Shown piece by piece: positions 6,649-63,928 of a stretch of DNA of 64,000 nt. This DNA comes from Somniosus microcephalus (taxonomy: Eukaryota): NCBI GenBank assembly GCA_052327205.1, contig CM126228.1:25420001-25484000 (forward strand), given 5' to 3'. The position numbers were made by a program, and so were the translations under genes. Each line of letters opens with the position of its first letter. Position 1 is the first letter of the stretch. The notes under the pieces were generated by a model. The model searched no databases and had not been told where the DNA came from. It was given only the letters and a program-made list of their open reading frames with translations.

Positions 6649-6970
6649 CAGGAAACTTTCTTTTATCCGGCACGGATGGGACCGACGTGGTGCCGGTTCA
6701 TCAAAAATTCCGGATAACCGAACGCTATCGTAAAAGATACGGAGCTGAGAGCTCCGTATGAAGCAACAAACCCTGTTGCTTAGCAACAGGTTCAAAACAA
6801 TGGCCACAAGTTGCAAGCGTCTCTGTAGCTTAGCAACAGCTGCAGCCACACCCTTGCACAGCAACACATGGAGCAAGGCAAGTAATAAAAGTTACCTGAA
6901 CCTACTCCTGAATTTTGCCGGTTAACCGACATTTCCGGTTATTATGGGGCCGGTTAATCGAGGTTTCCTG
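6649..6970. mobile_element. Tc1/mariner (Tigger-like) MITE, CAGGAAAC family, copy A
   Basis: Termini CAGGAAAC...GTTTCCTG flanked by TA on both sides; non-coding. Confidence 0.85.
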
Positions 6971-7197
6971 TAAATGGCGCACAGTCAAACGGTTGTGCTC
7001 AGCCTTTGCTGGCTGCTTTCCTATCGAGATGTAGCTGATGAGACCCGTGTCTCCAATTTGGTGCCACACTTGGTTTGGAAGTCTCATTTTAACAGCGGAA
7101 TTTATTCGGATTTTATTTTTATTTTTTGTCTCGTGCTTTTAATTTACTTCCCCAAAAAATATTTGTGCTTTTAATTAAAATTTATTTTTGCTTTCAG

Positions 7198-7280
7198 CAA
7201 GAAGTGATGAAGTTTACAGATCTAGAAAAACTCTACCTCTACCTTCAGTTGCCTTCTGGTCCTAGCAATGGAAACAAAAG
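7198..7280 (+). CDS. RFX7: RFX7 coding exon, [27 protein letters not shown](S)
   Basis: tttcag acceptor, GTAAAT donor at 7281; 83 nt, phase-compatible with neighbours; [17 protein letters not shown] is the RFX5/RFX7 N-terminal conserved motif. Confidence 0.95.
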
Positions 7281-9772
7281 GTAAATCCAACATCCATATT
7301 CTGTTGCTCTTTATTTAGCTTTTCAAGGAACTGACTGTTTATAAATAGTAACTAGTTGTACAAAATGAGCAGCAACAAATGCTCTCTGACGCTTGTGCTA
7401 TCAAATAAATTAAACATTTTGAGGAGGAGAAATCCATTATTTTAAGTGTTATAAAATGAATTTTATATATAAAGTGTAGAAACCATAATCTAATGAAAAA
7501 TCATTAATGCAGTGTCTTTCTAATTTACTTTGACGAGTGAATGTTAAAAGGTTCCGAGCATGTTGGAAAAATACCACAGACTGTTAATTTTAGCTACCTA
7601 TATTTATCATGTACATTCACAGGATCCATAAGTGAATATACTTAACCTTTTGAGGGCTGTAGCAATTCTTCATTACAAGAGAAATGAAGTTTAAAAGTGT
7701 TTCACGTTAATTCTGCTAAGTATTTTCATAATTTAGCCTTTGAACGTTCAGTTTTGAAGTTTTAAATGGACGACCAACTTGCAGGACAAAAAAAGGGTTT
7801 CAGAATGGCACCATAGTTTGAAGCACCCTTGGTGTCATTGAGCAGTGGAGGATTCATTCCACTAAGTTTCTAATCTCAACCTTGCTGCTGCAGGGAAGGG
7901 AGGGAAATTAAATCAGATGGGCTGCCTTCATGGTCATTTGCAGCCCTAGCAGCCACTTGAGATTGGTATTGGTAAGGTGGCAACCAGCCACCTACCAGCT
8001 CCGGAGGCACTAATAATGGAAGAAAATGCATTCCTTTTTTTATTTAACTTGTTCACTCTCCCACAGTAGATTAATATGTTGACATCCAAAATGGAGGAAG
8101 GCAGAAAAAGAGGAAACACTGGGACAATTTCCCCTCTAAAACCCTGATATTATATAGTGGTAATATTGGTAACAAGGTTCTTCCCATATCTGATGCAGGT
8201 TTTGCTGTAAGTGTGCCCAGATTTATTTTTATATCATTGATCAAAGTTTTCTTAATGCAGCAGGAAACATTCAGTAGTTTTTTTCCCCACACATTAATTC
8301 GTGTTAAGCTAAACAATCCCCACTCCTTACCATACTAGCTTAATTCCCATTTACCCTCTCTGCAGGGCTTTTGGTTCAGGTGGAGGCCATCCTTTTAGTA
8401 TAGCCTTTCCTTGCTACTCCGGTTGATGGTCACCACTTTTCTCATTCTGCACTATCCCTGTGTCCTGAATTGTCTAGCATGGTGTTTTGGATTACCACAT
8501 TCTGGAGAGTATAATCCAGAAACCCCTCAACCTCTCTGATGTTGTAAGGTGTGGCCGAATGGTCCTCTGCCCTAGAGACTCGATTTCTGCTTACACAGAG
8601 GAATTGTGATGGCCCATGTGTCACACTCTACACACATCACGAGGCTTCCCTGCAATGCTATCCCTCTGTGTTTAAATTAAAATTGTAGGTAGTGTTGGTC
8701 TGAACTCCCACCAGCACCAAACTCAAGCAAGAATCAAAGTGGAAAAGAGACAAAAATAAGCAAACTTGTCTTATTAATAAAGCATTTGGTTGCAGGATCA
8801 TTATCCAGTGCCTTGCTGACAACTATCTCATTTTCTATCAACTGTGAGTTTGCCATAGCAGTCAGTTGGCTATCAGCTAATACCTTTTCACTTCGAACAT
8901 TGAGGTTGTTCATTTCTCCCCTCATTGTTCTTCAGAGTTACATTCATTGGCCCACCAATGCTTTTCCAATAAGTGTTGGCACAAGTTGACTACCAGGGCG
9001 CACTCTTCAAAAGCTTATTGAAAGAAGACTTCAGCATGGTGTGGTACTAAGACATAGAGACCAAAGGGTTGCATGTTGAATTATTGCCCTGTGCTGTTAG
9101 CTGTTCTGAGCTGGGGTAATAGTTGGAGTGGGCCTATTAGCCTGACTATCCCTGGGCTGGGAAGGCAAGAAAATAATCAGCCAATATTGAATACTGGAAA
9201 GTACACATATGTGAACGTTGGGTGATTACTGTGATGTCGTCCATGGTTATATTGCCTTCTGACAAAAGAAAAATAATGCATTTATGTAGCACCTTAACAT
9301 GTCTCAGAACTGTCTCAAAGTACTCCATGTACAATGAATGACTTTGAAGTACTGTGGCTATCTCCATCATTATCTTCCACCACTGGAAATGCCTATCCCC
9401 AACTCTCTCACAAGCCCTCACACACTCCAACTCCCCTTAACCCTGACACTCCACTCAGATGATATCCCATCTCTTTTAATCACCTCAACAATTGCTCTGC
9501 TACCTCCTTTAATGTCCTGGGGCATGGAAGTGGAGACAGTAGCTGATGGTTCTTTCTTTCTGGGGCCTTTTTGCCCTCCTTGGCTAACTGCTTTGATTTT
9601 GGGTATGAAGCTTCCTGTACTATAAAAGAAATGCCTCTTCCTCTAAAGCTGAACAATCTAAATACAGCACATGTATTGCTGATAAGATTGTGATTAATTT
9701 TCTTGTATTTTAGGAATTCACTGTGTCAAACTTTTAGTTGCCACACAATCCTCTATTTAAAAGAGAAACGTA

Positions 9773-11285: not shown

Positions 11286-11617
11286 CAGGAAACTTTGGTT
11301 TATCCGGAGGTTGTATGTCCGGAATACTTGATCTAACGGCAAAAATCAGGAGCCGTTTTCTATAAGTTTTTTTAGTTCTCGTTCTTTTTTTTTCCCAGTC
11401 AGGCACTGCAAGGTCTGTAGCTATAGCAACAGCTTCAGCTAGAGACGCTTGCAGCTGCAGCCGACTCTTTAGAAGCTGTTACTAAGCAACAGTGTTTGTT
11501 GTCAGATACGGAGATGAAAACCTCCGTATGCTTCAACATTAACTTTGTATGTCCGGCAGTTTTGATAGATCGGCAACACGCCGGTCCTGTCGGTGCCGGA
11601 TATCACAAAGTTTCCTG
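11286..11617. mobile_element. CAGGAAAC MITE copy B
   Basis: TA-CAGGAAACTTTG...CAAAGTTTCCTG-TA; colinear with copies C, E and G. Confidence 0.85.
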
Positions 11618-13025: not shown

Positions 13026-13148
13026 CAATCCAAGTTCTTTATCGTCCAGTCGTACCCAGCAGATGCATGCTTTTAACTGGATCCGAAATCATTTGGAGGA
13101 CCACCCAGATACTTCACTGCCCAAACAAGAAGTCTACGATGAATACAA
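13026..13148 (+). CDS. RFX7: RFX7 coding exon, start of RFX winged-helix DNA-binding domain ([30 protein letters not shown])
   Basis: ttgcag acceptor, GTAAGT donor at 13149; 123 nt; RFX DBD motif. Confidence 0.96.
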
Positions 13149-14098: not shown

Positions 14099-14431
14099 CA
14101 GGAAACTTTGGTTTATCCGGAGGTTAACTGTCCGGAATGCTCGAGCCACTGGCAAAATTCAGGAGTCGGTTCAGTAAGTTTTTTTTCTTTTCGTTGCTTT
14201 TTTTTCACCAGTCAGGCTCTGCAAGGTCTAGCTAAAGCTGTTGCTTAGCTACAGAGATGCTTGCAAGCTACGGCCGACTGTTTAGAAGCTGTTGCTAAGC
14301 AACAGGGTTTGTTGCTAGATACGGAGCTCAAAAGCTCCGTATGTTTTAACATTAGCGCTGGTTTGTCCGGCAGTTTTGATGGGACGGCAACAGCTCGGTC
14401 CCGTCGGTGCCGGATATCACAAAGTTTCCTG
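14099..14431. mobile_element. CAGGAAAC MITE copy C
   Basis: TA-CAGGAAACTTTG...CAAAGTTTCCTG-TA. Confidence 0.87.
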
Positions 14432-17291: not shown

Positions 17292-19385
<2,094 letters not shown>

Positions 19386-19470
19386 ATATTGCTATAGTGG
19401 TCTGAGGAAAAAGGCTTTTGTTCACATGCCGTCGCTACCAAGTCTGGATTTTCACAAAACTGGAGACGGG
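19386..19470 (+). CDS. RFX7: RFX7 coding exon, end of DBD ([28 protein letters not shown])
   Basis: Follows the AC acceptor; GTAATA donor at 19471; 85 nt; absent from the ORF track but matches RFX7. Confidence 0.95.
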
Positions 19471-22659: not shown

Positions 22660-22867
22660 TCTGAAGGATCAGACTGTGCAGGCCAGCTGCAGAATATTGA
22701 TGAAGAGGTCAGATCTGCGGCTTGCAGTCTGGTGTGTGAGTGGGCCCAGAAAGTATTAATCCGAAAATTTGATTCAGTGGTCGATCTAGCTCGCTTCCTT
22801 GTTACCAGCCACTATATTGGCACTAAGTCTGTTGCTGCATTGTCTGTGATGGCTGGTGCGCCTTCAG
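22660..22867 (+). CDS. RFX7: RFX7 coding exon ([33 protein letters not shown]...[20 protein letters not shown])
   Basis: ttctag acceptor, GTGAGT donor at 22868; 208 nt; [10 protein letters not shown] motif of RFX5/RFX7. Confidence 0.95.
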
Positions 22868-23202: not shown

Positions 23203-23233
<31 letters not shown>

Positions 23234-25194: not shown

Positions 25195-26578
25195 TTCAAA
25201 GAAGGGTGTAAAGATAAACCCAGCAACTGCAGGCCAGTCAGTTTGACCTCGGTAGTGGGGAAGCTTTTAGAAACAGTAATCTGGAACAAAATTGACAGTC
25301 ACTTGGATGAGTGTGGATTACTTAAGGAAAGCCAGCATGGATTTGTTAAAGACAAATAGTGTTTAACTAACTTAATTGCGTTCTTTGATGAGGTAACAGA
25401 GGGTAATGCAGTTGACATAGTGTACATGGATTTCCAAAAGGCGTTCGACAAGTGCCACATAATAGGCTTGCCAGCAGAGTTGAAGCCCATGGAATAAAAG
25501 GGACAGTGGCAGCATGAATATGGAATTGGCTAAGTGATAGGAAACAGTAGTGGTGAACGGTTGTTTTTCGGACTGGAGGAAGGTATACAGTGGTGTTCCC
25601 CCGGGGTAGGTTCTAGGGCCACTGCTTTTCTTGATGTATATTAATGACTTGGACGTGGGTGTACAGAACACAATTTCAAAATTTGCAGATGACCCAAAAC
25701 CTGGAAGTATAGTGAACAGTGAGGAGGAGAGTGATAGACTTCAGGAAGACAGATAGGCTGGGGAAATGGGCGGACACGTGGCAGATGAAATTTAACGCAG
25801 AAAAGTGTGAAGTGATACATTTTGGTAGAAAGCATGAGGAGAGGACATATAAACTACATTGTATAATTCTAAAGTGGGTGCATGAAAAGAGACCTGGGGG
25901 TATGTGTGCACAAATCGTTGAAGGTGGCAGGGCAAGTTTACAAAGCAGCTAAAAAGCTTACGGGATCCTGGGCTTCATGAATAGAGGTATAGAGTACAAA
26001 AGTGTGGAAATTATGATGAACCTGTATAAAACACTAGTTCGGCCCCAACTGGAGCACTGTGTCCAATTCTTGGCACCACACTTTAGGAAGGATGTGAAGG
26101 CCTTAGAGAGGGTGCAGAAAAGATTTATGAGAATGATTCCAGGAGAGACTTCATTTATGTTGATAGATTGGAGAAGCTGGGGTGGTTCTCCTTGGAGTAG
26201 TGAAGATTGAGAGGAGATTTGATAGAGGTGTTCAAAATCATGAGGGGTCTGGCCAGGGTAGATAGAGGGAAACTGTTCCCATTGGCAGAAGGGTCGAGAA
26301 CCAGAGGACACGGATTTAAGATGATTGGCAAAAGAACCAAAGGCGACATAACGCAGCGATTGGTTAAGATCTGGAATGCACTGCCTGAAAGGGTGGTGGA
26401 GGCAGATTCAATCACTGCTTTCAAAAGGGAGTTGGATAAATATCTGAAGGAAAGAAATTTGCAGGGCTATGGGGAAAGGGCGGCGGAATGGGACTAACTG
26501 AAATGCTCTTGCAGAGAGCCGGCACGGGCTCAACAGGCGGAATGGCCGCCTTCCGTGCTGTAACCATTCTATGATTTC
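25195..26578 (+). mobile_element. 5'-truncated degenerate CR1 LINE
   Basis: RPVSLTSVVGK, QHGF, KFADD, LYKTLVRPQLEHCVQF and RGDLIEVFKI motifs in broken frames; CR1 tail ending cattctatgattt. Confidence 0.92.
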
Positions 26579-27810
26579 TAACCTCCAGAGAGACTTGTCT
26601 CGTCGGGTCTCCATCACTACTAGGCTGCTCTGTGACATCACCAGTGGGTAGTCACTGCCCTGTGCATTAGAGTGCCTTTATTGAAAACACCCTCGGGTCA
26701 GCCTGAGAGCTGATCTGGAGATGCACAGCCTTGAAAATCTTTATTTTCAGTGGGTGATTGCCCATCATTCATCACGGCATAGCTTAGCAGGGAGAAGGCC
26801 TCCCTGTAGGTAAGAACATTGATGTTTTTACAAGTTTAAAATGAGGGACTACTAAAAGTACCCCTCTCTGACACTTCCTGTTCCTTTTGATTTTTGTCAA
26901 AAATATTAATCAATCATTATCTGCTTTAGTTTACTGAATAAGTGTTTAACAAACCAGTACTTGTCCATTTATTGTTTGACTTACTGTAATATATTCCATT
27001 TTGCCAACATTTTTTTTCAAAAAATGGGAGATATCCTGTTATATAGAAAGAGTGTTGAGACCTCATTGCTTACCTTGCGCTGTTTAGCCTCATTTAGGCA
27101 AGAACTCTGCATCTGGTCTGTACTATACCTTGACGTGCTTGATGCAAAAACTGGAAAGTGCGCCATTCCTGGCATTGACATCTTTATTGAGCATTAAAAA
27201 AACTAAAGGGACAAGTTGTTACTTCTTATGGCATATAAAAATAATTTGAAGAACCAAATTACACCTGAAAGCTTTGTCACGAAAACAGTCCACATGCAAG
27301 AAACAACTAGTAACAGCAACAGGCACCACACAAGCACGGCTGAACGTCCTGCGTATAGGTTAAATGTTATTTATGAAAATGAACATGCAGAAACCAATGC
27401 TGCTCTTTATTTCCTGACTAATGGCTTGGAAAAATAGATAAGTAGAATGCCTTTTAGTTGTGTAGGGCTCCATGGAGCTGCTGTTTCTACAACAAGTTGC
27501 AGAAAAAAATGGAGATGTATATGAGCCTAATAATATGCTCAAAGGAATTGGTGGAAGCAGCGTCATTGCTTTCCATAATCATTACGCAGGTTTCCATTAG
27601 TGTTAGAGAACAAACAAACCAAGCCGAAGGCACAAAGTGGGTGAAATTGCTCTTTATGAAAAACATAGCTAACAAAATCAGAAATTGCACATTTCAAAGC
27701 TGCACATTCCCACAATTGTTAGTGGTTCTTGTGTTTAAATGACCTACTAAGCATCTGTTGTTATCTGTGTGCACCTTTTTCAGAAGTTGATATAATTTTC
27801 TTTCTTGCAG

Positions 27811-28115
27811 GAGTGAAACAACCTTCTGCTTTTGTGCCCATGGCTGAAAGCAATTCCTTTCAGCCCCAGGTGAAGACTCTGCTTTCCCCATCAATAGATG
27901 CTAAGCAACAGTTGCAGCGTAAAATTCAACAAAATACACTGAAGAAACAACAAGAGCAGAAACTGCAATCTCCACTACCGGGCGAGCAACAAGTAAAGAA
28001 ACTGGAAGGTGCCACTATTGGGGGAGTGGCCAACATCCCCAATGGAAGCCCTGCTCTGCTTTCTCCTCAACCTACCATTGGCATTGTGGTGGCAACCGTT
28101 CCAAGTCCTATCCAA
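27811..28115 (+). CDS. RFX7: RFX7 coding exon ([23 protein letters not shown]...[13 protein letters not shown])
   Basis: ttgcag acceptor, GTAGGT donor at 28116; 305 nt keeps frame into the terminal exon. Confidence 0.93.
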
Positions 28116-28889
28116 GTAGGTTATTCATGGTTCAATATTAAGACCGAATAGTCAAGGAATAGCAAAGCGAGGGCTGTGGGGGGAAAAAAGTCAGAAATCC
28201 AGAATAAAAATGCATTATCTGGGCTGTGAATTACTTGTCAGTTTTCATTGGCAAAGTTACATAGTTTAGGTATGTAGCACTTACTGGTGGTTTAATTGCT
28301 CTGGCACTGTACTTCCAGTTGCAAGCCCTAAGTTGCATTCAAATTGCCGTAATTTTCATAGTTTCCCTGCTTAAATGGCTGGCTCATATGATGAGTAGTG
28401 ATAAACAACAAAGTATTTCACTTCAGAGACCTGCCATATTTTGGCCTACCCATAGTATTACACCTTTGGTGCTTTCCTAATGGAATAGTGTTGATGGTGA
28501 TTACATGTCTTGTTCCCCACTTTCCTCCTCTCCCAGTATAGTGATATGTTAAACCACTGGGGAAACCAAAAAAGAGGGGAAAAATGGGGATTCTCCCCTC
28601 TGCTTGTTTATCTAAGTATGTGCGTGTAATATTTTAATACAAGGGCACACAAGATGTTATCTTCCTCTCTCGTGGACTAGGCCCAGCATTCCACTGTTAC
28701 TCATTATGTATTTATACAGTGCCTGAAAGGATATTTTCCCTCCAAACTTAAATACTATAAATCCACCCTATATAAAGCCACAAAGCATACATTAGAAAGA
28801 GATTGTTTTAGAATGGCTTTCTACCAGCAAAGAAGCCATAAAAATATATGAATGCCTGATGTCTGTGGGGGTAATTGTAGTATATAATA

Positions 28890-30350
28890 CAAGCTGAAGT
28901 GCCCGGCGGTGCCGAGGCTTTTTCGAGGGCATGTTGTTGTTGGAAGAGAGAGAGAGAGAGAGCGACTGGGGGGGGGGGGAAAGAGAGAGAGCGACTGGGG
29001 GAAGAGAGGGAGGGAGGGGTGGGGGGAAGAGAGGGAGGGGTGGGGGGAAGAGAGGGAGGGGAGGGGGGAGGGAGGGGAGGGGAAGGGAGGGGGAGGGGAG
29101 GGCGGGGGGAGGGGGAAGGAAGGGAGGAGGGGGGGAAGGGAGGGGAGGGGAAGGGAGGGCGGGGGAGGGGAAGGGAGGGCGGGGGGGAGGGCAGGGGAGG
29201 GAAGGGGGGGAGGGCAGGGGAGGGGAAGGGGGGGAGGGCAGGGAGGGGAAGGGGGGAGGGCAGGGGAGGGGAAGGGAGGGCGGGGGGAGGGCAGGGGAGG
29301 GAGGAAGGGAGGGAGGGGGGGAAGGGAGGGCAGGGGGGGAGGGAGGGCGGGGGGGAAGGGCGGGGGAGGGGGGGATGGAGGGCGGAGGGGAGGGAGGGCG
29401 GCGGGCGCCCCCCCCCCCGAGGGTCGCGGCCCCCGAGGGTCGCACCCCACCCCCCCCCCTCTCCCCGGAGGTGAAGACCGCCGATTGCGCGCGCAGCAGG
29501 AGCTGAGACGCGGCGTCTCTCTCGGCCGGCGGGCCCGGTTGCCAGGGCAACCGTGACGCTGACCAAGCCAGAGAGAGAGACGCCGCGTCTCAGCTGCTCC
29601 TGCTGCGCGCGCGGCCGCCCCCCCCTCCCCCGAGGTGAAGACCGCCGATTGCGCCCGTTGCCGGGGTAACGCTGGACGCTCAGCAAGCCCCGGCAGAGAG
29701 AGACGTCTCAGCTCCTGCTGCGCGCGCACCCTAGCGGCGCTGGGCTGAGGCTCGGCCCTCCAGCCTTCGAGTGGGGCGGGAGGTGCCTAGCTCGGACGTG
29801 GGTGCGGAGGAGACGCCGAGGCTTCTAGGCCTACCTGGAAAAACGGGGAAAGGTAGGAAAATTAATGAGATTAGATAAGTTAATTACTTTCTAAATCATT
29901 TTTTTTAAAACAATGTGTTTTAAAAGCAACGTTTTTTTTTAAGACGCAGAAAGCGGGAAAAAGAAAGGAAAAGTTTGGAATCAAGATGGCGGCGACTCAC
30001 CTCGGTTCAGAACGATAAAGCCCGGCCACACGCGCACCGATTGGCCCGGCGGCACACGCCAGCAACCCGGCGTACGATTGGTCGAGCTCGAGGTCACTCT
30101 GTCGCTAATGAGCGGATAATGAGATGCTAATGAGCGGAATGTTGAAGGTTTTTGGGATACCGCGGGCGCAATTTTAGCCCGGCCGAAACGTAAATACGTT
30201 TAAAACCGTCTCGGAAGCGTAAGCTTTCTTTGGAGGTAACGCGCGCGTAGGTACGCCCTGTAACTTTCGAGTGCATACCCGCAACGCACACGCGATGACA
30301 GACAGATAGACAGAAGTACCGATTTATATATATATAGATAGATAGATAGA
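28890..30350 (-). mobile_element. Non-autonomous Helitron-like element with G-rich tract and CpG-rich core
   Basis: Minus strand begins A|TCTAT... with (TCTA/TCTG)n microsatellite and ends with a short GC hairpin (28902-28917) about 10 nt before CTTG|T; no TIR or TSD; abrupt GC shift against AT-rich intron. Confidence 0.62.
28945..29420 (+). repeat. Polypurine G-rich low-complexity tract ((GA)n then GGGA/GGGGA/GGCAGGG units)
   Basis: About 470 bp almost only G/A on the + strand; source of the spurious Pro- and Gly-rich ORFs. Confidence 0.95.
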
Positions 30351-31250: not shown

Positions 31251-32094
31251 TATTGTGGTAACAAATGCTACTAGTGCCACCAGCAAATATGAAAATTTAA
31301 CACTGTCTTGAAGTAGGAAAAAAATACAATATTTCTTTTAATTTCCAATTTTTGTTTTTATTTCCTTGTTATTTTTTGGCTTGTTCCTAGGCCTCTTCCG
31401 ATCCGAGTCTAGCTGATTGCTTGCAGTCATGCTGTAGGAGAGAGGAAAGGTGGTGCCCTCTGTTGATAAATGGTTGGCCTTTGTTATGTACACCCCCCTA
31501 TTGCCCCAGTATTATTATGAATTCGGCAGGAAATTCATGACTAACAGAACCATATTTGTATCATTCTGTGATGCAGGGCATTGCACCCTCCCCCCGCCCC
31601 CCCCCCCCCCAAACAAAAATTCTCCATTACACAAGATAAAAGCTATTTCTAATGTTTCAATTCAATATCAATATTATCAGTAAAACTACCAAAAAGTGGT
31701 TGAATATGATGCACTGCAGAAACTTGTGAATGAATTACGGAGAAAATTAAAATAGGGGGGAAAGATTGTTGGTGGCACACATGGAATTCAGTTCATGTAA
31801 TTAACGGAGATATTTTCAATAACTGTACAGTGATTTTAATTTTGAAACTAGCTCTGTAAATAAGAATAGAATACTTTTACTGTAGTTCTGTTGAATGTGT
31901 TTACCCTATTTACTGTAATTCATTACCTGCCATACATTACAGGAAAGTAATATATGGCAAAACTGTTGGGAGTTCAGTCTTCTGTTTACATTTGATGTGA
32001 AGTGCAAGAAAAAACACTTGCTTCACTCTGAGGAGTTTGTTCGTTCTTATGTTTAAATATAATTTTTATAGGCCTTTTACGTTGAATTTTTCAG

Positions 32095-37989: not shown

Positions 37990-39730
37990 AACATAGAAAC
38001 ATAGAAACATAGAGATAGGAACAGGAGTAGGCCATTCGGCCCTTCGAGCCTGCTCCGCCATTCAATGAGATCATGGCTGATCTTCATCTGAGATCTTAGC
38101 TGATCTTACCAGTTCAGTACCCCGTCCCCGCCTTTTCTCCGTAACCCTTAATCCCCTTAGCCTTCAGAAATATATCCAATTCTCTCTTGAAAATATTTAT
38201 TGAATTAGCCTTCACAGCCCTCTGTGGCAGGGAATTCCACAGGCTCACCACTCTTTGAGTGAAGAAATTCTTCCTCATCTCTGTTTTAAATGATTTGCCC
38301 GCTATTTTTAGACTGTGGCCCCTGGTTCTGTGCTCCCCTGCCATTGGAAACATTCTCTCTGAATTCAGCCTGTCCAGGCCTGCCATAATTTTATATGTTT
38401 CGATGAGATCCCCTCTCAATCTTCTAAACTCCAGTGAGTACAAGCCCAAACTATTCAATCTCTCCTCGTAGGTCATTCCCGCCATTCCAGGTATCAGCCT
38501 GGTGAATCGCCGCTGCACTCTTTCCATGGCAAGAACATCCTTCCGCAGATGGGGCGACCAAAACTGTACACAATACTCCAGATGCGGTCTCACCAGCACC
38601 TTGTACAGCTGTAGTAAGGTATCCCTATTCCTATACTCGAACCCCCTTGATATGAAGGCCAACATACCATTTGCCTTCTTAATCGCCTGTTGCACCTGCA
38701 TGCTCTCCTTCAGTGACTGGTGCACAAGAACACCCAGGTCCCTCTGCACTTCCCCATCTCCCAATCTATTGCCATTTAGATAATAATCTACCCTCCTGTT
38801 TTTACCCCCAAAGTGGATAACCTCGCATTTATCCACATTATAGTGCATCTGCCACGTATCCGCCCATTCCCCCAACCTGTCCAAATCGCACTGTAGCCTC
38901 CTGACATCCTCATCAGAGCCCACCCCTCCTCCTAGTTTAGTGTCGTCAGCGAATTTGGAAATATTGCATCCAATTCCCTGATCCAGATCATTTATATATA
39001 TTGTGAACAGCTGGGGTCCCAGGACAGATCCTTGCGGCACCCCGCTGGTCACTGCCTGCCACTCCGAAAACGAGCCGTTTATTCCAACTCTCTGTTTTCT
39101 ATCCGCCAGCCAGTTCTCTATCCACGTTAATACTTTGCCCCCAATCCCATGAGCCTTAATTTTGCATGATAATCTTTTGTGTGGAACCTTATCGAAGGCT
39201 TTCTGGAAGTCAAGGTACACCACATCCACTGGCTCTCCCCCATCTATTTTACCAGTTACTTCCTCAAAAAATTCCAGCAGATTAGTCAAACACGATTTAC
39301 CCTTTGTAAATCCATGTTGACTCTGTCCGATCCTTTCCCCATTTGTCAAGTGCTCCGCTATTTTATCCTTAATAATGGACTCTAGCATTTTGCCCACAAC
39401 CGATGTAAGGCTTACTGGTCTATAATTCCCTGCTTTCTCTCTACCCCCCTTTTTAAATATTGGGGTAACATTAGCTACCCTCCAATCCACGGGTACTGTT
39501 CCCGAGTCAATGGAGTTCCGGAAGATGATCCTTAGAGCATCTGCTATCTCCAGGGCCACCTCCTTAAGTACCCTAGGATGTAGTTTATCAGGCCCCGGGG
39601 ATTTGTCGGCCTTCAGTCCCCTCAACTTACCCAACACCATATCCCTAGAGATACTAATTTCTGTCAGCTCCTCCCTCTCATTAGTCCCTATGTTTGCCGA
39701 TATTCCTGGGAGGTTATTTGTGTCCTCCTA
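37990..39730 (-). mobile_element. Young 5'-truncated CR1 LINE with uninterrupted RT reading frame (38114-39640) and (CTATGTTT)n tail
   Basis: 508-aa ORF with KSPGPD, NYRPVSLTS, QHGF, DFQKAFDKV, GVPQGSVLGP and FADD motifs; no endonuclease or ORF1. Confidence 0.96.
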
Positions 39731-40704: not shown

Positions 40705-41018
40705 CAGGAAACTTTTGTTTATCCGGAGGTTAAATGTCCGGAAAGCTCTATCCACCGGCAAAATTCAGGAGTCGGTTCAGAAAAGTTTTTTTTTCTTTTT
40801 GTTGCTTTTTTTCTCCAGTCAGGCTCTGCAAGGCCTAGCTGAAGCTGTTGCTTAGCTACAGAGATGCTTGCAAGCTACGGCCGACTGTTTTGAAGCTGTT
40901 GCTTCACACGGAGCTCCTGAGCTCCGTATGTTTTAACATTAGCGCTGGTTTGTCCGGCAGTTTTGATGGGACGGCAATGGCTCGGTCCCGTCAGTGCCGG
41001 ATACCAGAAAGTTTCCTG
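40705..41018. mobile_element. CAGGAAAC MITE copy E
   Basis: TA-CAGGAAACTTT...AAAGTTTCCTG-TA; close to copies C and G apart from a 20-bp internal deletion. Confidence 0.87.
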
Positions 41019-46140: not shown

Positions 46141-46477
46141 CAGGAAACTCTCTCTTTTAACCAGCACCTAAATAACCGGAAATCTCTGTTAACCGGCAAA
46201 ATTCAGGAGTAGGTTCAGGTAAGTTTTACTTCATATTAGTGGCAGTTCCTGGATCTGTGGCCGTGTAACTGGGGTTCGTTCACTTGTTGCTAAGCAACAG
46301 GGACGCTTGGTCTGTGGCCGGAGTTCCTGCACATGTTGCTAAGCAACAGGGAAGCCTGGATTTGTTGCTGTGTACGGAGCTCTCGTACCTTTTACTATAC
46401 CTCTCTGTAATCCGGACTTTTTGATAAACCAGCACCACGCTGGTCCCGTTGGTGCCGGATAATAAAAGAGTTTCCTG
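46141..46477. mobile_element. CAGGAAAC MITE copy F
   Basis: TA-CAGGAAACTCT...AGAGTTTCCTG-TA; related to copy A in opposite orientation. Confidence 0.85.
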
Positions 46478-46851: not shown

Positions 46852-48236
46852 GAATCATAGAATAGCACAGCACAGAAGGAGGCCATTCGGCCCATCGAGT
46901 CTGTGCCGGCTCTTTTGAAGAGCAATCCAGTTAGTCCCACTCCCCTGCCCTTTTCCCATATACCTGCAATTTTTTCTCCTTCGAGTATTTATCCAATTCC
47001 CTTTTGAAAGCTACTATTGAATCTATCCACCACCCTATCGAGCAGTGTATTCCAAATCCTAACCACTCCTTGCCTCTGGTTCTTTTGCCAATTACCTTAA
47101 ATCTGTGCCCTCTGGTTATTGACCCTTCAGCCATTGGAAACAGTTTCTCTTTAAAATCATTAAGGGTTTACATAAGAACATAAGAAGTAGCAGTAGGCCA
47201 TACGGCCCCTCGGGCCTGCTCCGCCATTCAATAGGATCATGGCTGATCCGAATCTAGACTCACGTCCACTTCCCTGCCCTCTCCCCGTAACCCCTAATTC
47301 CCTTATCTGCTAGGAAACTGTCTATCTCCGTTTTAAATTTATTTAATGTTGCAGCTTCCACAGCTCTCTGGGGTAGCAAATTCCATAGATTTACTACCCT
47401 CTGAGTGAAGAAGTTTCTCCTCCTCTCAGTTTTGAAAGGGCAGCCCCTTATTCTAAGATTATGCCCCCTAGTTCTAGTCTCACCCATCAGTGGAAACATC
47501 CTCACCGCATCCACCCGATCAAGCCCCCTCACAATCTTATATGTTTCGATAAGATCGCCTCTCATTCTTCTGAACTCCAATGAGTAGAGTCCCAACCTAC
47601 TCAACCTTTCCTCATACGTCAACCCCCTCATCTCTGGAATCAACCGAGTGAACCTTCTCTGAACCGCCTCGAGAGCAAGTATATCTTTTCTTAAATATGG
47701 AAACCAAAACTGCACGCAGTATTCCAGGTGTGGCCTCACCAATACCCTGTATAACTGCAGCAAGACTTCCCTGTTTTTATACTCCATCCCCCTTGCAATA
47801 AAAGCCAAGATTCCATTGGCCTTCCTGATCACCTGCTGCACCTGTTTAGATAGAGTAAATAAACACCACCTATCAAATTTCCTCTTAGCCTTCGCTGCTC
47901 CAAGGAGAACAACCCCAGCTTCTCCAGTCTATCCACGTAACTGTAATCCCTCATCCCTGGAACCATTCTAATAAATCTCTTCTGTACCCTCTCCAAAGCC
48001 TTCACGTGCTTCCTAGAGTGTGGTGCCCAGAATTGGACACAATACTCCCAGCTAGGGTCGAACTAGTGTTTCATATAGGTTTAGCATAACTTCTGGCTTT
48101 TGTACTCTCTGCCTCTATTTATAAAGCCCAGGATATGCTTTTATTAACTGCTTTGTTAATCTGTCCTGCCACCTTCAAAAATTTGTGCACAGGCACCTCC
48201 AGGTCTCCTCTTGCACCCCCTTTAAAATTGTACCAG
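46852..48236 (-). mobile_element. Older CR1 LINE fragment interrupted by a nested younger CR1
   Basis: Tail at 46852-47150 and RT remnants at 47866-48236 resemble the 25195-26578 subfamily. Confidence 0.8.
47171..47844 (-). mobile_element. Nested younger CR1 3' fragment (193-aa open frame)
   Basis: QQVIRKANGILAFI...RPHLEYCVQFW...GYGERAGKW, (CTTATGTT)n tail, flanked by TTTA on both sides. Confidence 0.9.
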
Positions 48237-49016: not shown

Positions 49017-49034
49017 GTGCTGGAATGTGACAAT

Positions 49035-50419: not shown

Positions 50420-50985
50420 ACTTTAATTCACCGCCCCATTCCCACTCAGACCTCCCCGTACTTGGGCTCTTGCATTGTTCCACAGAAACCCAGCGTAAGC
50501 TCGAGGAACAGCACCTCTTCTTCCGATTAGGCACTTTACAGCCTTCCAGACTCAATATCGAGTTCAACAATTTCAGATCATAACCTCGGCCCCTATTACA
50601 TTTTTAGATATTTTTTATCCACACCTTTGTTTTGGCCCTTCCCCCTTTTTTTCTCCCACATGGCAGCTGTCTCCCATTCTGCCAGCGCATTTCACACCTA
50701 ATTTAGAGCCGTCTTTTGTCTCTCCACTAGTCCTATCACCATCTCGTCTCGTTTTGAATACCTCTTAATGTCTCTTCACTTGTCTTTTGTTCTTTCATCC
50801 CCATTTCCCAGCCCCCAAACTGGCCTTTTAATCTGTTTCATTTCCTGTGTTTTCTCAGTCTTGACGAAGGGTTTTGACCTGAAACGTTGACTCTATTTCT
50901 CTCGCCACGGATGTTGCCTGGCCTGCTGAGTTTTTCCAGCATTTTCTGTTATTTTGGATTTCCAGCATCCACAGTATTTTGCTAT
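50420..50985 (+). mobile_element. Penelope-like element 3' end (GIY-YIG endonuclease C-terminus + terminal repeat)
   Basis: Translation FNSPPHSHSDL...RKLEEQHLFFRLGTLQPSRLNIEF, then pyrimidine-rich UTR and tgacgaaggg...cctgaaacgtt motif. Confidence 0.8.
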
Positions 50986-51672
50986 CAGAAAAGTAACTTG
51001 CTCTGCCTATATTGGCTGGAAAGAACAGCTCAAGAATGGATGGGCAGCACTACTTTCTATTTCCTCTTCCTCACACTCTGATGTAGAGAAGTACTTCGCT
51101 CCGGCTCAGTTACTTCATTCCCACTGAACTGACCAGCAGTCGTTTTGCAACAAATGACCGACATTCTACCATTCCACAGCAGATTGGTACAGCATTCCAT
51201 GGCAGTTCTGCCAGCAGATTTTAAATTCTGTTGGATTATAATGCAAATGAACAGTCCCAGGTGTATTGAAATAGTAACCAAATGAGACCTATTTTTATCA
51301 AAATAAAATTCAAACCCAACGAAATGTTGTAGTCTACGCTTGTATACTGATTCCTTGCAAATAATGGATGCTTTTTTCCACCAGTATTCTTTGCTAAATC
51401 TATTAACGTGGACAGAAATAGCATATTAACTAAATATAAAATAATAGCAGGTTGTAGGCAGTCCTAAAATGATCTTGGGGTCCAAGTTGAATACGAACAG
51501 GCACACATTAGTAACAAATTGCCCAATCATGCTGTGCTTTTTATAATATAGCCAATATACTCTTGCTTACCTTGATTAGATAAAATTGGTGCAAAAAAGA
51601 AAGAGCTGTTGTGACCCAGTGAATGGATTACGGCGATGACATGATGGTCTGCAGCGAAAGGTTGAATGGTGT

Positions 51673-52291
51673 TGCAGTAGTGATACCCGCCCTCCTGTAT
51701 GCTTCAGAGATGTGGACCATGTACAGCAGGCGCCTCAAAGCACTGGAGAGGTACCACCAACGCTGCCTCCACAAGATCCTGCAAGTCCATTGGCAGGATA
51801 GGCGCACCAACGTCAGTGTTCTTGTTCAGGCCAGCATCAAAGCTTTGACCACGCTCAATCAGTTCCGATGGACGGGTCACATTGTCTGCATGCCTGATAC
51901 GAGACTCCCAAAACAAGCGCTCTACTCAGAGCTCCGACACGGCAAGAGAGCCCCAGGTGGGCAGAGGAAATGTTTCAAGGACACCCTCAAAGCCTCCTTG
52001 AAAAATGCAACATCCCCACCCATACCTGGGAATCCCTGGCCCAAGACCGCACAAAGTGGAGGAGAAGCATCCGGGAAGATGCCGAACACCTCGAGTCTCT
52101 TCGCCGGGAGCAAGCAGAAGCCAAGCGCTAACAGCGGAAGGAGCGCACGTCACCCCAAGCACCCCACCCCTTCAACCACCGTCTGCCCCACCTGTGACAG
52201 GGACTGTAGGTCCCACATTGGACTCATCAGTCACCTGAGAACTCATTTTTGATGTGGAAGCAAGTCATCCTCGGTTCCGAGGGACTGCCTA
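51673..52291 (+). mobile_element. RTE-clade LINE 3' fragment
   Basis: LLYASEMW, HQRCLHKIL, RWTGHIVCMPDTRLPKQALYSEL...GKRAPGGQRK and terminal CPTCDRDCRSHIGLISHLRTH zinc finger. Confidence 0.88.
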
Positions 52292-55929: not shown

Positions 55930-56958
55930 CATAAGAACATAAGAACATAAGAAATAGGAGCAGGAGTAGGCCAATCGGCCCCTCGAGCCTGCTCCACCAT
56001 TCAATAAGATCATGGCTGATCTGATCCTAACCTCAAATCTTCTATCACTCTGCATCCACCCGAACCCATGTGATCTCCCGGGAGAGGCGAAAAACCAGAT
56101 AAAGACCCAATGGCCAATTTGGGAGAAAAAAATCTGGGAAATTCCTCTCCGACCCATCTAGGCGATCGAAATTCTTCCAGGAGATCACTCTGTCCCTATA
56201 TTTTCTACAGTACTTACCTTCTGTAAAGGCGATCTCCACCCCAGCCAGGAACAGGAATAAAACCATCTCCTGAAATCTAACAGAATTAGAACACAGTAGG
56301 AGCAGAACAAGGCTACACGGCCCCTGGGCCCGCTCCACTACCCACAGGGCCATGACCATTCCGAACCCAGACTCGTCCAATTTCCTGCCCGCTCCCCGTA
56401 ACCCTTTATTCCCTTTACTTCTAGGAAACTATCTATTTCTGTTTTAAATTTATTTAATGATGTAGCTTCCACAGCTTTTTGGGGCAGCAAATTCCACAAA
56501 CCTACCACCCTCTGAGTGAAGAAGTTTCTCCTCATCTCAGTTTTGAATGAGCAGCCCCTTATTTTAAGATTATGCCCCCTAGTTCTAGTTTCACCCATCA
56601 TTGGGAACATCCTCACCGCATCCACCCGATCAAGCCCCTTCACAATCTTATATGTTTCAATAAGATTGCCTCTCATTCTTCTGAACTCCAATGAGTAGAG
56701 TCCCAATCTACTCAACCTCTCCTCATATGACCACCCCCTCATCCCCGGGATTAACCGAGTGAACCTTCTTTGTACTGACTCGAGAGCAAGTATGTCTTTT
56801 CTTAAGTATGGACACCAAAACTGTATGCAGTATTCCAGGTGCGGCCTCACCAATACCTTGTACAACTGCAGCAATACCTCCCTGTTTTTATATTCCAACC
56901 CCCTAGCAATAAAAGCCAACATTCCATTGGCCTTCTTGATCACTTGCTGCACCTGCAT
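55930..56958 (-). mobile_element. CR1 3' fragment with extra segment (about 56040-56370) in its 3' UTR, inserted in an older LINE tail
   Basis: 206-aa RT C-terminal frame very similar to 47260-47841; (CTTATGTT)n tail at 55930; flanks 55820-55929 and 56960-57065 read as one older repeat. Confidence 0.88.
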
Positions 56959-57368
56959 ACAAGGAACTGCAGTGGTTCAAGGGAAAAGCCCGCCACCACC
57001 ACCTACTCGGCAACTTGAGATGCACAATATATCTGGCCTTGCCAGCATTACCCACATCCTGAGAACAAAAACAAAAAACACAGAAACAATCAGAGTGGAA
57101 AAGAAGCATATAAACTGTTACAGGAAGAGAAGCACCTTGCTTTCGTCTGTGAGCAATGTCACTAGTTTAAATCAAAAAATAAAAACAGAAAATATTGGGG
57201 ATACACAGTGAATTCATCAGCATCTGAAAAGGTACACTGTAAAGTTTTGTGTGTGAATCCTTTGACAGAACCCAAGTTTAATACTTCAGACGCAGATCCT
57301 TCATCAGAATCCAGAGTTGAGAGCCAGAATTTGTAAGTTATCTTTTCAGATGCTGATTGATTCACTCA

Positions 57369-58030
57369 ATAGCAAAATACTGTGGATGCTGGAAATCTGA
57401 AACAACAACAGAAAATGCTGAAAACACTCAGCAGGTCAGGCAGCATCGAGGAGAGGAGAAACAATCAACGTTTCGGGTCCGGGGCCCTTCGTCAGAACTG
57501 GAAAAGATTAGCGAAGAGAGATTTTTAAGCCGGGGCAGGGAGGAGGGGAGGAAAGAACAAAGGGGCAAACACCAGAAGGGAAACAGAAATCAATGAAGAT
57601 GAACAAGGTTGAAGAAACAGACAAAACGGCTTGATTTACTACGATAACCTCGGCCCCTATTACATTTCTATACATTTTTTATCCACACCTTTATTTTGTG
57701 CCCTTCCCCCCCCTTTTTTCTCTCCCACATGGCAGCAATCTCTCATTCTACCAGCGCATTTCACACCTAATCTAGAGCCGTCTTTTGTCTCTTACCAAAC
57801 CTATCACCATCTCGTCTCGTTTTGAATACCTCTTACTGTCTCTTCACTTCTCTTTTTGTTCTTTCATCCCCATTTCCCAGCCCCCAAACTGGCCTTTTAA
57901 TCTGTTTCTATTTCCTGTGTTTTTTCAGTCTTGACAAAGGGTTTCGACCTGAAACGTTGACTGTTTCTCTCTCCACGGATGTTGCCTGGCCCTGCTGAGT
58001 TTTTCCAGCATTTTTCTGTTGTTATTTCGG
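57369..58030. mobile_element. Penelope-like inverted terminal-repeat remnant
   Basis: 57644-58020 is closely similar to 50579-50950; 57369-57510 is an inverted copy of the same repeat family. Confidence 0.8.
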
Positions 58031-58189
58031 ATTGATTTACTTCTAAGACTTTTTTTCAGATTGGCAGTGTCTAAAATTGTGTGTTTTTTTCCCCAATGGC
58101 TATTATTCAATGGACCTGTTAACTATAAGTTGCAGTAATGTGGCCTTTTTGGAGCAAGGGGCAACTTAGTTTGGTGTCACTTTGTTCTT

Positions 58190-58860
58190 GCTGATCCTGG
58201 AGCAGCCAATGTGTGCGCCATGTGATGTGCAGGAGCTTGGCGAGTGGCTGCTGGCCCGCTGATGTCACCGTGTTTCCTCTCTCACGGGCTGGGCTGCCCC
58301 CGGCCAGACCCACTCGGCAAGTTTCCTCGGCACAGGCTGGTGTACCAGTGAAAATCCCAGTTTTATTTTTGGGTTGGTGTGTGTGGGAAAGCGAAGACTT
58401 GAAGCAGCACGGCGGCCGAAACCTTTGAAGACATTCGCCAAACCTGCTGTGCAGCTGTTTCTCCTCCACCCGGCGATGGCAGCGTTTCCTGAAGTCCGCG
58501 GTCTCTCCACCGATGAGGTAATTTTCTAGTGATTGTGTTTTATCTTTTTTAATTTAACCCCCTTTTCCATTCCAAAAAAAAAAATTCTCACATTGATTGT
58601 AACTTTCTCCACGTCCAGTGGCGAGAATCGCCCACCTTTCTCCCCCTCTCCCAGGAGCTGCCTGGCCTGGGGGCTGGGGGTGGTGGGCAGGGCGGTGCGG
58701 CCACAGGAGCCGGGCTGGCTGGCCGGCCAGTGAACCCGCCAAAGTGGCCTTTCCTCCATCGCTTGGAGCTCTGCCCACTGCAGCCTGGACTGCCGCGGGA
58801 GAGGAGCCCCGCATCCTCCCAGAGCTTTAGGCCTCACAAACCAGGGCAGTCGGTGCTCGC
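58190..58860 (+). promoter_or_regulatory. CpG/GC-rich promoter and 5' UTR region of the downstream gene
   Basis: Local GC/CpG enrichment outside recognisable repeats, CCAAT near 58206, surrounding an ATG-bearing exon. Confidence 0.65.
58476..58517 (+). CDS. NEDD4: Probable first coding exon of HECT E3 ligase NEDD4 (MAAFPEVRGLSTDE)
   Basis: Good Kozak context (GCG ATG G), 14 codons, phase-0 GAG|GTAATT donor; resembles NEDD4/NEDD4L N-termini ending GLxxDE before the C2 domain; NEDD4 follows RFX7 on the same strand in human. Only 14 aa, so the call leans on synteny. Confidence 0.65.
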
Positions 58861-60429
58861 ATTCCTTGGACCAGGGGGGTGGACTGCTGCTGCTGACTTC
58901 CACCAAAAAATTCAAAGCCCCATTGTATTGATTCTGAGATTTGTTCACTGACCGATGTATTTGTGCCTTGCAGGAAGGATCTCGGATTCTGAGAGTGAAA
59001 ATTTTCTCTGGAATTGGCCTTGCGAAGAAGGATATTTTGGGAGCCAGGTAGGATTTTATTTTTGGGGTGGGGTGGGGTGGGGGTGGGGGGGGCGGTGCTG
59101 GGAGCTCACCAGTGACAGGGCCAAACAACTGGAAACTCTTTTGTCGCTTTATATGTGACGGGAGAGTAGCAGCGACCGCTGTGCGGTGGCGAGTGGACAG
59201 CATTTTATAATGAGAGCAGGACAAGTCAACACAGGCATTTAACAAAAAAACTAAACATACAGGGCTGTGAAAAGTAGAGTTGGTATTCCCATCCCCCCAC
59301 CCACACACACACAATCATGGGGCAATTCTGAATGTTACACTAATCCATTGTTGAGCACTGTGTTTTCTAACATGAGTTATTGATTTATTGCACAATTGTG
59401 TAACGACACATTTCATTAACGTCACAGCATTTGTATTGAATGACTAATTAGTAGGTTCTTTCCTCTTACATGTCATGTGAGGCACTATAAAATTTAAATA
59501 ATGTGGGTGAGCTGGTAAATGCCTCAGCCATCCCCCTGTCTACCAGAAACATCAAGCCAGAGGAAATGAGATCGCATATTTTAAGACATTCTTGATATCA
59601 TATCAAAAGTCAACATCTTGACTCTTCCCTTTGTATGTATTGTGTAAAGGCTTTCCTCTGGTCTTATTCTCCCCCTGCCCCTGGGCTGCGGGAGGTGAGG
59701 GCATTTTGACTCCTTGAACCTCATCTTAGTTGTCAAATTTAAAGGTAGCATCAAGTGTGTACGTTCAATTTCTTGACTGATCTTTGAAACGTGGCCCACA
59801 GTTGTCTGACCTTTGTTGGTTTTTCCTTAATTGATTACTAGGATGTACAGTCATTCTCCAGGTGTGGTATCTTAATGCAAGACGTAAACCCCAGTTAAAC
59901 TCTTAGCTGAGCAAGGGGTGCTTGTTGCCATTTCTACCAGTTCTGACCATTTAAGATCCAGCTGTGCCTCTCGCTATAGGAATTGCTAGACGAATAAAGA
60001 CCAAGGTTCATCTAGTTTGCCTTCTACCATCCTGGTAGTCGCATGATACAACGATAATGGAGTTGGTGTCCAATCGCGTAATCATTCTCTATTAATTGGT
60101 CGACAAAAGACCCAGACATGAGCCGAGGACTGCTCCCCCCCGTGATGGAAAGCTTTGGGAAGCATCGGTCCCATGTCACTTGTTTCTCACAGGGATGCTA
60201 CACTTGCCACACATCATGTCTAAAATTACTCTTGCTCTATCCCACACTATTTTCTGAAAGAAGTCTTACTAATTTGCATTTCAGTGAATCAGCAAGATCT
60301 GCTCGCACCGTCTCCCCATGGAGCCTGTTCCATCGATTTAACACTCGCTCACTGAAATAATGCTTTGGCAGATTAGCTTTGAATTTACCTAACTTGAAGC
60401 GCAGGCCATGTCCTTGCCACTTCTCTTAA

Positions 60430-61125: not shown

Positions 61126-61364
61126 AGTTTTTTTTTTATGTTGTCTGGCCAGTCTCCCAGTTATGCTTTTTTAATGGTGCTGGATGTCTTGAGCAGATTA
61201 CAGTTGATAACCCACAAGCCTGTCAACACTTCCAAGAGCTGCCAAAGGCTTCTAGCACCATTGATTGACCCTGACGTTGAGTGTATTGTATCTGTGTCAT
61301 CTGATGCCATCAGCACGTCCACTGTACTGGCTGGTACCACTGATATTCCATACGAATATACAAA

Positions 61365-61640: not shown

Positions 61641-62361
61641 TCTCTCTCTCTCTCTCTCTCTCTCTCCAATACAGCAAATCAGCATTCACTGTATGAGACG
61701 GCAATCTGTGCCGCTATTCATAAACCGACTTAAGGACTTTGTGGTTCCAAAGATAGGCTCCGAAATTGTCATTTCTTTGTCTAAATCAGGATTTCGCTAG
61801 ACTTGTGCTGCCGGCAGATTTTGATCTGTTTTTTGTGAATTCCTTTTTCCCTCTCCCTATTGGGATTAGTGACACTGGCCGAGGGAACAAAGTGGAAAAT
61901 TACAATGCATTGAAATACACCATTTGGGGCAAATTTCTCTCGTCTTTTTTCCTGCTTAATCCAGTCGAAGTGGAGCGTATTGGATGTACAGTTTTCTCCG
62001 GATGGTGCCATCCTCCAGCTTGGTGCCTATGCCTATAAATGTTCCTAGGAACATCCAAGTTGAGTTTACTGTTGAATTTTGCAAACTTTGACGTGAAGGC
62101 AATAAGGAGACTTTTACCACCTTGTGAACTAAATTGTTCCTTGAGTTTAAAGTTAAACCCGTTTGTGGTTGCCTGATTTTGGGCCTCGGGCTGTGGCCTG
62201 TCTGTTTACTACTGAATTTTTAAAGACTAGTTATGTTTTACAAGCAATTAAACTCATGGTACTTTTCAAATACATAGAATGATCTGTTCCTTAGTAAGCC
62301 AAATGCCTCTATTTTTAGCTCAGTTATTAGAAGCTTTTAGTTTAACCTGCCTTTGCAGGTG

Positions 62362-62700
62362 ACAACAGCTACTTGCATTTATATAGCGGCTTTAACATAG
62401 TAAAATATCCCAAGGCGCTTCACAGGAGGGTTATCAAATAAAATTTGACACCGAGCCACATAGGGAGCTATTAGGACAGGGGTTTTAAGGAGCGTCCTAG
62501 TGGTGGAGAGGTTTACGGCAGGAATTCCAGAGCTTAGGGTCTCGGCAGCTGAAGGCACGGCCGTCAGTGGTGGAGCGCTGAAAATCAGGGATGCATGAGA
62601 GGCCAGAATTGGAGGAGTGCAGCGATCTCGGAGGGCTGGAGGAGGTTCCAGAGATGGGGACAAATGCATTGTAAGTGCTTGAAAAGTAAAACTCCAGTGA
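62362..62700 (-). mobile_element. L2 LINE 3' fragment
   Basis: ttgcatttatatagcg...cccaaggcgcttcaca tail; minus-strand GRAFSCRDPKLWNS motif. Confidence 0.75.
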
Positions 62701-63593
62701 AGGCAGCAAAGGTCAGTTCGTGGCTGCAAGGGTCAGGCAGGGCACAATGGCCGCAAAGGTTGGATGGGTTTCTACTTCACTGGTACCTGGTGCTCCATTC
62801 ATTTATTGATTTGTCAGTGTGCCTGGAGGTCTGAGTTTATTTGTTCGTCGTTTCATTCATTTGCTGGTGCCTGCAGCTCCATTTAAAAAAAAAAAAAAAA
62901 TTAAATTACCATTGTACCAACTGCTGTATGCATTCATTTCCTGGTGCCTGCTGCTGAATGGGTGCACTGATGAAGTGGTGGCTGGTGCTTTATTAAGTAA
63001 CTGGGTGCCTGGTTAATTTTGCTGCAGTGTGCTTCAGTAATCTTTTGTTGTTGGTAGTGAGTAATGATGCATGCAGTTTTCACAGGTTTCTGTGGGTTGA
63101 GTTTTCCTGTTTTGATTGTGTCGCGTCAGAAAAATAATCTGATGCATTTTGTTTGAAATTAAGTTCTCCAGTTTGAAAGAAGAAAGAAAGAAAGCCTTGC
63201 ATTTGTTATTCTAATAAGGCAAAGATTAAAAATTAACTGCTGTTGGCTACTGTTTTAGGGCATACTGTCATCACAGTCTTTGCCAAAATCAAGATAAAAG
63301 CTTTCAACACCCGTGCGGATCCTGCCTCCCCATGTGTAGACCCACAGGAGGTCGACTAGTAGTTTATTAACTGTAACCTTATCCCAATGAATGGAGTGGC
63401 ATTTGAATTGCTTGCAGATCAACACCAGTTGAGACAGAGGAATATGGGTGGTAATAGCAGCACTTGGCAGTGAAGCATTAATGGTGTATTCATGTGTAGA
63501 ATCTAAATGCTGTCCAGATTCTAATGTAGGATCAATTCCCACCATACATATTACAGCCTCATTCCATAAGCTGATAAGTGCACGTTTGAAATA

Positions 63594-63928
63594 CAGGAAA
63601 CTTTCTGTTATCCGGCACTGACGGGACCGAGCTGGTGCCGGCCCATCAAAACTGCCGGAGAAACCAGCGCTAATGTTAAAACATACGGAGCTTCTGAGCT
63701 CCGTCTGAAGCAACAAACCCTGTTGCTTAGCAACAGCGTCAAAACAATCGGCGCAGCTTGCAAGCATCTCTGTAGCTAAACAACAGCTTCAGCTAGACGC
63801 TTGCAGAGCCACGACTGGAGGAAAAAAAGCAACGAAAAGTAAAAAAACTTATCTGAACCGACTCCTGAATTTTGCCGGTGGATAGAGCGCTTCGGACATT
63901 TAACCTCCGTTTAAACGAAAGTTTCCTG
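63594..63928. mobile_element. CAGGAAAC MITE copy G
   Basis: TA-CAGGAAACTTTC...GAAAGTTTCCTG-TA; reverse orientation relative to copies C and E. Confidence 0.87.

Follow-up and report, generated by a model that had tools for sequence, protein, structure and literature searches.

X-box-like palindromes in a putative Tigger-type MITE family around RFX7 in a cartilaginous fish

Genes and element copies at the locus

The DNA analyzed here is a 64,000-nucleotide stretch of the Somniosus microcephalus genome (GenBank assembly GCA_052327205.1, contig CM126228.1, positions 25,420,001 to 25,484,000 of the forward strand), which we call the window and from whose first base all coordinates are counted. 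It contains part of RFX7, the beginning of a NEDD4-family gene and seven copies of a miniature inverted-repeat transposable element (MITE), most of which carry palindromes resembling the X-box, the binding site of RFX proteins. The original prediction for this stretch saw in these copies a mobile cluster of RFX sites with a possible role in regulating both genes; we suggest below that the boxes may instead be cargo kept for the benefit of the element itself.

The RFX gene of that prediction was confirmed as RFX7 by tblastn with two cartilaginous-fish RFX7 proteins, by the Pfam domains RFX_DNA_binding and RFX5_N and by a homologue search. Seven coding exons were seen on the forward strand between 7198 and 35460 (about 7198-7280, 13026-13148, 17319-17441, 19387-19470, 22660-22867, 27812-28117 and 32092-35460, some edges being approximate). 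The first of them aligns to residue 56 of the Narcine protein, and the first exons and the transcription start of RFX7 therefore lie upstream of the window. The C-terminal half, encoded by the last, large exon, is 87% like the Callorhinchus protein and 84% like that of Narcine, and for a second region these values are 67% and 71%. The NEDD4-like gene likewise belongs to the NEDD4 family, as indicated by a PDB match to the NEDD4 C2 domain (E 3e-6). Sequence, splice sites and this match place it at 58477..59048 on the forward strand, with a likely first coding exon at 58477-58517 and a second, holding the start of the C2 domain, at about 58975-59048. It is likely to be NEDD4 rather than NEDD4L, judging by the best match and by a synteny of RFX7 and NEDD4 that we assume to hold here.

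All seven predicted starts of MITE copies were borne out, every copy beginning with CAGGAAAC and having TA on both sides (7/7). Copy 1 (6649..6970, reverse strand) lies in an RFX7 intron, 228 bp before an exon, and holds a perfect box at 6775-6787 and one with a single mismatch at 6825-6837. Copies 2, 3 and 4 are also in RFX7 introns: copy 2 (11286..11617, forward), which is divergent, has boxes at 11417-11430 (with 14-bp spacing, inside a micro-inversion) and 11478-11490; copy 3 (14099..14431, forward) has boxes at 14240-14252 and 14291-14303 and a half-site at 14311; copy 4 (17990..18217, reverse), whose terminal repeat at 18217 has one mismatch, is an internal-deletion derivative and has no X-box. 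Copies 5 (40705..41018, forward) and 6 (46141..46477, forward) lie in intergenic DNA, the distance to the downstream NEDD4 start codon being 17.6 and 12.2 kb, respectively; the former keeps a box at 40847-40859 and has lost its second, and the latter has two perfect boxes (46286-46298 and 46335-46347). Copy 7 (63594..63928, reverse) lies within NEDD4, in an intron and 5.3 kb past the start codon, with a perfect box at 63722-63734 and one with two mismatches at 63772-63784.

The copies are 228-337 bp long, alignable end to end and 60-92% identical in pairwise comparison, and they occupy about 3.4-3.5% of the window. They form at least two subfamilies, A (copies 2, 3, 5 and 7) and B (copies 1, 4 and 6), and three of them (6649, 17990 and 63594) are inverted relative to the other four. 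A profile built from the seven has exactly seven full-length matches in the window, and outside them nothing at E<1; the other forward-strand occurrences of CAGGAAAC (3478 and 8261) and the one GTTTCCTG (58484) in the window are not element ends.

The family resembles Tig1-like Tigger elements

The reading of these copies as a MITE family is upheld by the flanking TA, the terminal repeats and the lack of coding capacity, the longest open frame being 81 amino acids. By its sequence, we identify it as a putative non-autonomous Tigger MITE family of a cartilaginous fish (pogo superfamily, Tig1-like), because its ends resemble those of the Tig1-like clade of turtles and crocodilians. Compared with a published terminal repeat of the Tig1-like type, the right ends of all seven copies agree at 18-19 of 24 positions and the left ends at 13-16 of 24, and the target-site duplication is TA in each case. 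When compared by eye with rows of Table S1 of PMC7386202, the subterminal blocks of both ends (about the next 50 bases) recur in turtle and crocodilian Tig1-like elements, end for corresponding end. Words with a CCGG core lie subterminally at about 21, 36 and 53 from the left end and are mirrored at the right end. Such subterminal repeats of a terminal core word would be expected where a pogo-type transposase binds; among the references of PMC5950925, one title states this for Lemi1/Emigrant.

A homologue search with a translated copy found no candidate, and an Rfam scan of the window gave no matches and hence no known RNA family. Three protein matches returned by a four-row profile, all to proteins with ankyrin or WD40 repeats and with agreement at about 20 of 62 positions, were rejected as chance.

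Paired boxes in a rearranging interior

The five palindromes predicted to be perfect (6775, 14291, 46286, 46335 and 63722) and all of the listed variants are present at their positions, with the amendments that 14311 is a lone half-site, that the copy at 17990 has no X-box and that the copy at 40705 has no second box. At least one X-box-like palindrome thus occurs in six of the seven copies, and where an element has two boxes they are 49-51 bp apart. Allowing one mismatch, the 13-bp pattern has 10 matches in the window where 1.65 are expected, a number reached by none of 100 shuffles, and nine of the ten are inside copies. Being copies of each other, the matches show a repeat-borne motif and not ten independent events. 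The window has 51 GTTGCT/AGCAAC half-sites, of which 24 fall within copies. The 14-bp X-box is at chance level (three against 1.74 expected; 25 of 100 shuffles reach this), as is a one-mismatch 13-bp box in an RFX7 coding exon (27897-27909).

The motif had been called RFX-type, and the boxes do fit, at 13-bp spacing, what we take to be the RFX consensus (GTNRCY-N(0-3)-RGYAAC): ten boxes in six copies match it, and an eleventh has two mismatches. The spacing is 13 bp in 10 of the 11 boxes, and so non-canonical for most, and 14 bp in one (11417). X-box variants of 13 bp occur in motif libraries.

The two boxes lie in degenerate units that can be aligned with each other, that is, in a local duplication, and inverted repeats abound in the interior (fold z -7.2), which includes a second hairpin. 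In copy 2, a 30-bp micro-inversion (11414-11443) between short inverted repeats has left the palindromic box readable, now with 14-bp spacing. In copy 5 a deletion of 20 bp, bounded by two TGTTGCT repeats, has taken out the second box, and copy 4 has a larger internal deletion at short repeats; across the seven copies, 3 of 14 box positions are deleted.

Divergence of the boxes and CpG retention

Changes were counted as parsimony steps on six copies, copy 4 being dropped because its interior is deleted; gaps were not counted, and the set used for comparison excluded CpG sites. The boxes have 4 steps in 117, the terminal repeats 14 in 229 and the rest of the element 146 in 1008 (Fisher p 0.0003; like our other p-values this is optimistic, as the motif was picked because it recurs and the test is post hoc on six related copies). 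The comparison of substitution rates proposed with the original prediction shows, post hoc, boxes that have changed about four times less than the rest of the element. The box pair ties for the lowest count among 221 paired windows. In a cruder count by columns, made before allowing for the inversion, box 2 showed a deficit (1/65) and box 1 did not (12/77).

Most of this signal comes from comparisons between subfamilies, and it fades in the three youngest copies, where the boxes have 1/65 changes against 23/615 (p 0.72; with 2.4 expected there is little power). For differences fixed between subfamilies the counts are 1/24 and 24/139 (p 0.13), and for copy-private changes 3/143 and 93/1215 (p 0.009), the latter being dominated by copies 2 and 6 and including changes of their own master lineages. 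We read the constraint as acting on active lineages rather than on inserted copies; the data fit both.

Subfamily A has kept 49 of 56 CpGs and has more transversions (68) than transitions (47), a pattern unlike plain decay in methylated DNA. The CpG observed/expected ratio is 0.65-1.04 in the seven copies, compared with 0.30-0.46 in five fragments of CR1-type long interspersed nuclear elements (LINEs), and differences among the copies comprise 160 transversions and 120 transitions, compared with 195 and 333 in the CR1 fragments. The CpG-decay ratio of copies and CR1 fragments (1.5 and 1.3) was set aside as uninformative because the consensus-CpG rule masks decay in old families.

Placement of the copies and other repeats

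A special tie of the family to RFX7 and NEDD4, as originally proposed, does not emerge from the placement of the copies, which we compared within the window only. Their positions are uniform (Kolmogorov-Smirnov p 0.51), and four of the seven lie in the 31,164 bp of RFX7 introns while three lie in the 28,540 bp outside (p 1.0); on the same split, 6 of the 13 CR1-like intervals in the window are intronic, there being also five other repeat intervals. Functional human X-boxes lie mostly within -500/+500 of a transcription start, or permissively within -2300/+1400, and distal functional ones are called an exception (PMC5838959). Among the starts seen, and allowing that unannotated alternative starts are possible, no copy lies within -2300/+1400; the nearest to any start seen is 5.3 kb from the NEDD4 start codon, and no full X-box was found in 3.7 kb around the first NEDD4 exon. 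The RFX7 neighborhood of these copies is therefore probably a coincidence.

RFX1-3 bind the palindrome, whereas the target of RFX7 and RFX5 is a half-site; RFX7 occupies no more than a small part of the RFX5 sites, and most sites of RFX7 lie close to starts and are accompanied by CCAAT boxes (PMC8287911). None of the seven copies has this RFX7-target architecture: CCAAT occurs inside none of them, and within 100 bp outside of five (about p 0.05 by hand, post hoc). RFX7 autoregulation is the weakest part of the original prediction, because the copies have no CCAAT inside and none is near a start, and binding of the RFX2/3 type appears more plausible at the predicted boxes. Overexpressed RFX7 raised the expression of several mouse transposable elements (PMC13144441).

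A second, unrelated element lies in the last RFX7 intron (28890-30350, reverse strand). We call it Helitron-like because its ends (5' TC with a microsatellite, 3' hairpin with CTTG) have what we take to be Helitron features. Its CpG observed/expected ratio is 1.22, and it contains a purine tract of 400 bp, two perfect 14-bp X-boxes (29538 and 29657) within an internal duplication, a YY1-like word (29983) and CCAAT boxes at 30040 and 30077 flanking a half X-box at 30058. In sequence it looks like a captured promoter, and it seems to fit the architecture of RFX5/RFX7 sites better than the MITEs do. Its X-boxes fit a common cargo of mobile DNA here, but they could also reflect retention at RFX7.

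The remaining repeats include CR1-type fragments at 38117-39727, 47263-47928 and 56341-56976 (all reverse), 3006-4158 and 25330-26581. The first of these includes an open frame of 537 codons in which a reverse-transcriptase domain is found, and three CR1 3' ends are about 9.1 kb apart, probably by chance. At 51623-52249 (forward), an open frame that ends in a C2H2-like finger (weak Pfam match, E 0.009) resembles the 3' end of a LINE of a different type. A second dispersed family has five intervals (among them 5159-5595, 50580-50985 and 57367-58033); at 5159-5564 it forms a pair in inverted orientation, separated by 150 bp.

Why the element carries the boxes

We favor, with a probability of about one half, the explanation that the element retains the boxes as cargo of use to itself and that most inserted copies are passengers. 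On this view the family is mobilized in trans: a transposase would recognize the 24-bp terminal repeats together with the repeated subterminal words WWCCGG, and insertion would take place at TA. Two X-box-like palindromes and spare half-sites would have arisen when about 50 bp of the interior were duplicated, and the pair would have changed very little as the subfamilies diverged. Most likely, host RFX dimers (of the RFX1/2/3 type, expressed in the germ line) would bind the boxes and keep donor copies open to the transposase; alternatively, the boxes may derive from a parent element that needed them. If RFX binding or parental need held the pair constant across subfamilies, selection would have acted on the element before insertion, inserted copies would mostly be passengers, and the seven copies around RFX7 would reflect ordinary repeat density; the 95% interval of the observed seven per 64 kb is 2.8-14.4. 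RFX2 is expressed in pachytene spermatocytes, about two thirds of its testis peaks lying outside promoters (PMC4498915).

Several results weigh against this explanation. Apart from the optimism of the p-values, the contrast in divergence shrinks when copy 4 is included (8/130 for the boxes, 199/1363 for the rest), and the deficit of copy-private changes would also be produced by selection after insertion. The CpG retention is also compatible with these particular copies lying in open chromatin. Given a shark host, the window could be truly enriched, as the copies make up 3.4% of it while the average share of TcMar elements is 0.14% for sharks, 3.28% for skates and 2.30% for rays (PMC12361510). 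Repeat annotation often leaves MITEs unclassified. The RFX2 motif found in vivo by chromatin immunoprecipitation is reported to be 14 bp long (PMC4498915), unlike 10 of the 11 boxes. Finally, a non-palindromic block (positions 55-69) is as conserved as the boxes, and the palindromes could therefore be sites of the transposase or of other proteins.

This last point, together with the abundance of inverted repeats, the second hairpin and the micro-inversion and microhomology deletions at these repeats, speaks for palindromes that serve the transposon in a functional or structural way unrelated to RFX (as sites of the transposase or another protein, or as hairpins regenerated by template switching) and match the X-box incidentally, which we consider unlikely but the most probable of the rivals. 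As hairpins they behave poorly: the first box is an imperfect palindrome in five of six copies, so there is no correction to symmetry, the arms of the second show no compensatory change (0/6 pairs), so that sequence and not pairing is kept, and the other hairpin is less conserved (14/136). An origin unrelated to RFX also sits badly with the CTG...CAG flanks of the boxes, which resemble what we take to be the flanks of RFX5/RFX6 motifs. If the boxes are instead leftovers of the promoter of an autonomous parent, inherited by each subfamily and idle in the MITE, conservation mainly between subfamilies and the existence of the box-less copy 4 would follow. We think this improbable, given that the interior resembles a local tandem duplication, that none of eight perfect X-box strings occurs in the text of the pogo table (PMC7386202, supplement 3) and that no such palindrome was seen by eye in the first 400 bases of Tig1-like reptile elements.

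The original prediction itself, that the copies are host RFX-responsive enhancers providing RFX7 autoregulation, input to NEDD4 and a rewired RFX regulon, we also rate as improbable, if by a hair less so. The low box divergence, with its copy-private component, the high CpG retention, the density relative to TcMar elements in published sharks, the X-box pair of the unrelated element in the last RFX7 intron, the CCAAT words outside five copies and the finding that promoters hold under a third of RFX1-3 peaks (PMC7498320) all speak for it. The uniform placement far from starts, the lack of a full X-box around the first NEDD4 exon, the preference of RFX7 for half-sites near starts, the exceptional status of distal functional X-boxes and the loss of boxes in two copies speak against it. 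A bolder combination, in which a phased X-box pair recruits germ-line RFX dimers for MITE transposition, tens of thousands of RFX sites are scattered and some copies, including those at RFX7 and NEDD4, are now RFX-responsive enhancers feeding back on an RFX gene, strikes us as a long shot.

Should RFX proteins bind these boxes, the family would be an abundant mobile source of RFX sites in a lineage where regulatory DNA has received little study. It would then also allow one to test cleanly whether a non-coding transposon retains a host binding site to serve its own mobility or to serve the host. Should binding fail, this would be an ordinary Tigger MITE whose RFX7 setting is due to chance.

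Comparison with known systems

Our literature search found no description of this family or of an RFX-bearing Tigger MITE, and the exact palindromes were not found in the main text of the literature searched; subscription papers, bioRxiv supplements, Dfam and Repbase were outside its scope, and the family may be catalogued there. Neither the terminal repeat CAGGAAAC nor the box strings were found in the text of three pogo/Tigger supplements. With the Tig1-like Tiggers of turtles and crocodilians (Table S1 of PMC7386202 and of PMC9219625) the family shares the TA target, a terminal repeat of 23-26 bp ending in TTATCCGGCA and both asymmetric subterminal blocks. It differs in that its ends start with CAGG rather than CAGT or CAGC, and in its small size (228-337 bp), its lack of a transposase and its internal X-box pair, whereas the shark Tiggers in the tables of these two papers have other terminal repeats. 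With the RFX X-box, be it the RFX1-3 palindrome or the RFX5/RFX7 half-site (PMC8287911), the boxes share two inverted GTTGCY half-sites, by the consensus that we assume; they differ in their predominant 13-bp spacing, as opposed to the 14 bp of the RFX2 motif (PMC4498915), in not being promoter-proximal and in lacking CCAAT inside the element.

MITEs that amplify transcription-factor motifs are an established kind in plants, where they have multiplied E2F, bZIP60, PIF3 and TCP sites, with in-vivo E2F binding cited, and where such a motif was found in 11 of 12 genomes (PMC5950925). The present family is like them in being non-coding with repeated transcription-factor motifs, and differs from them in its vertebrate host, in its RFX motif and in being known here from the sequence of one window.

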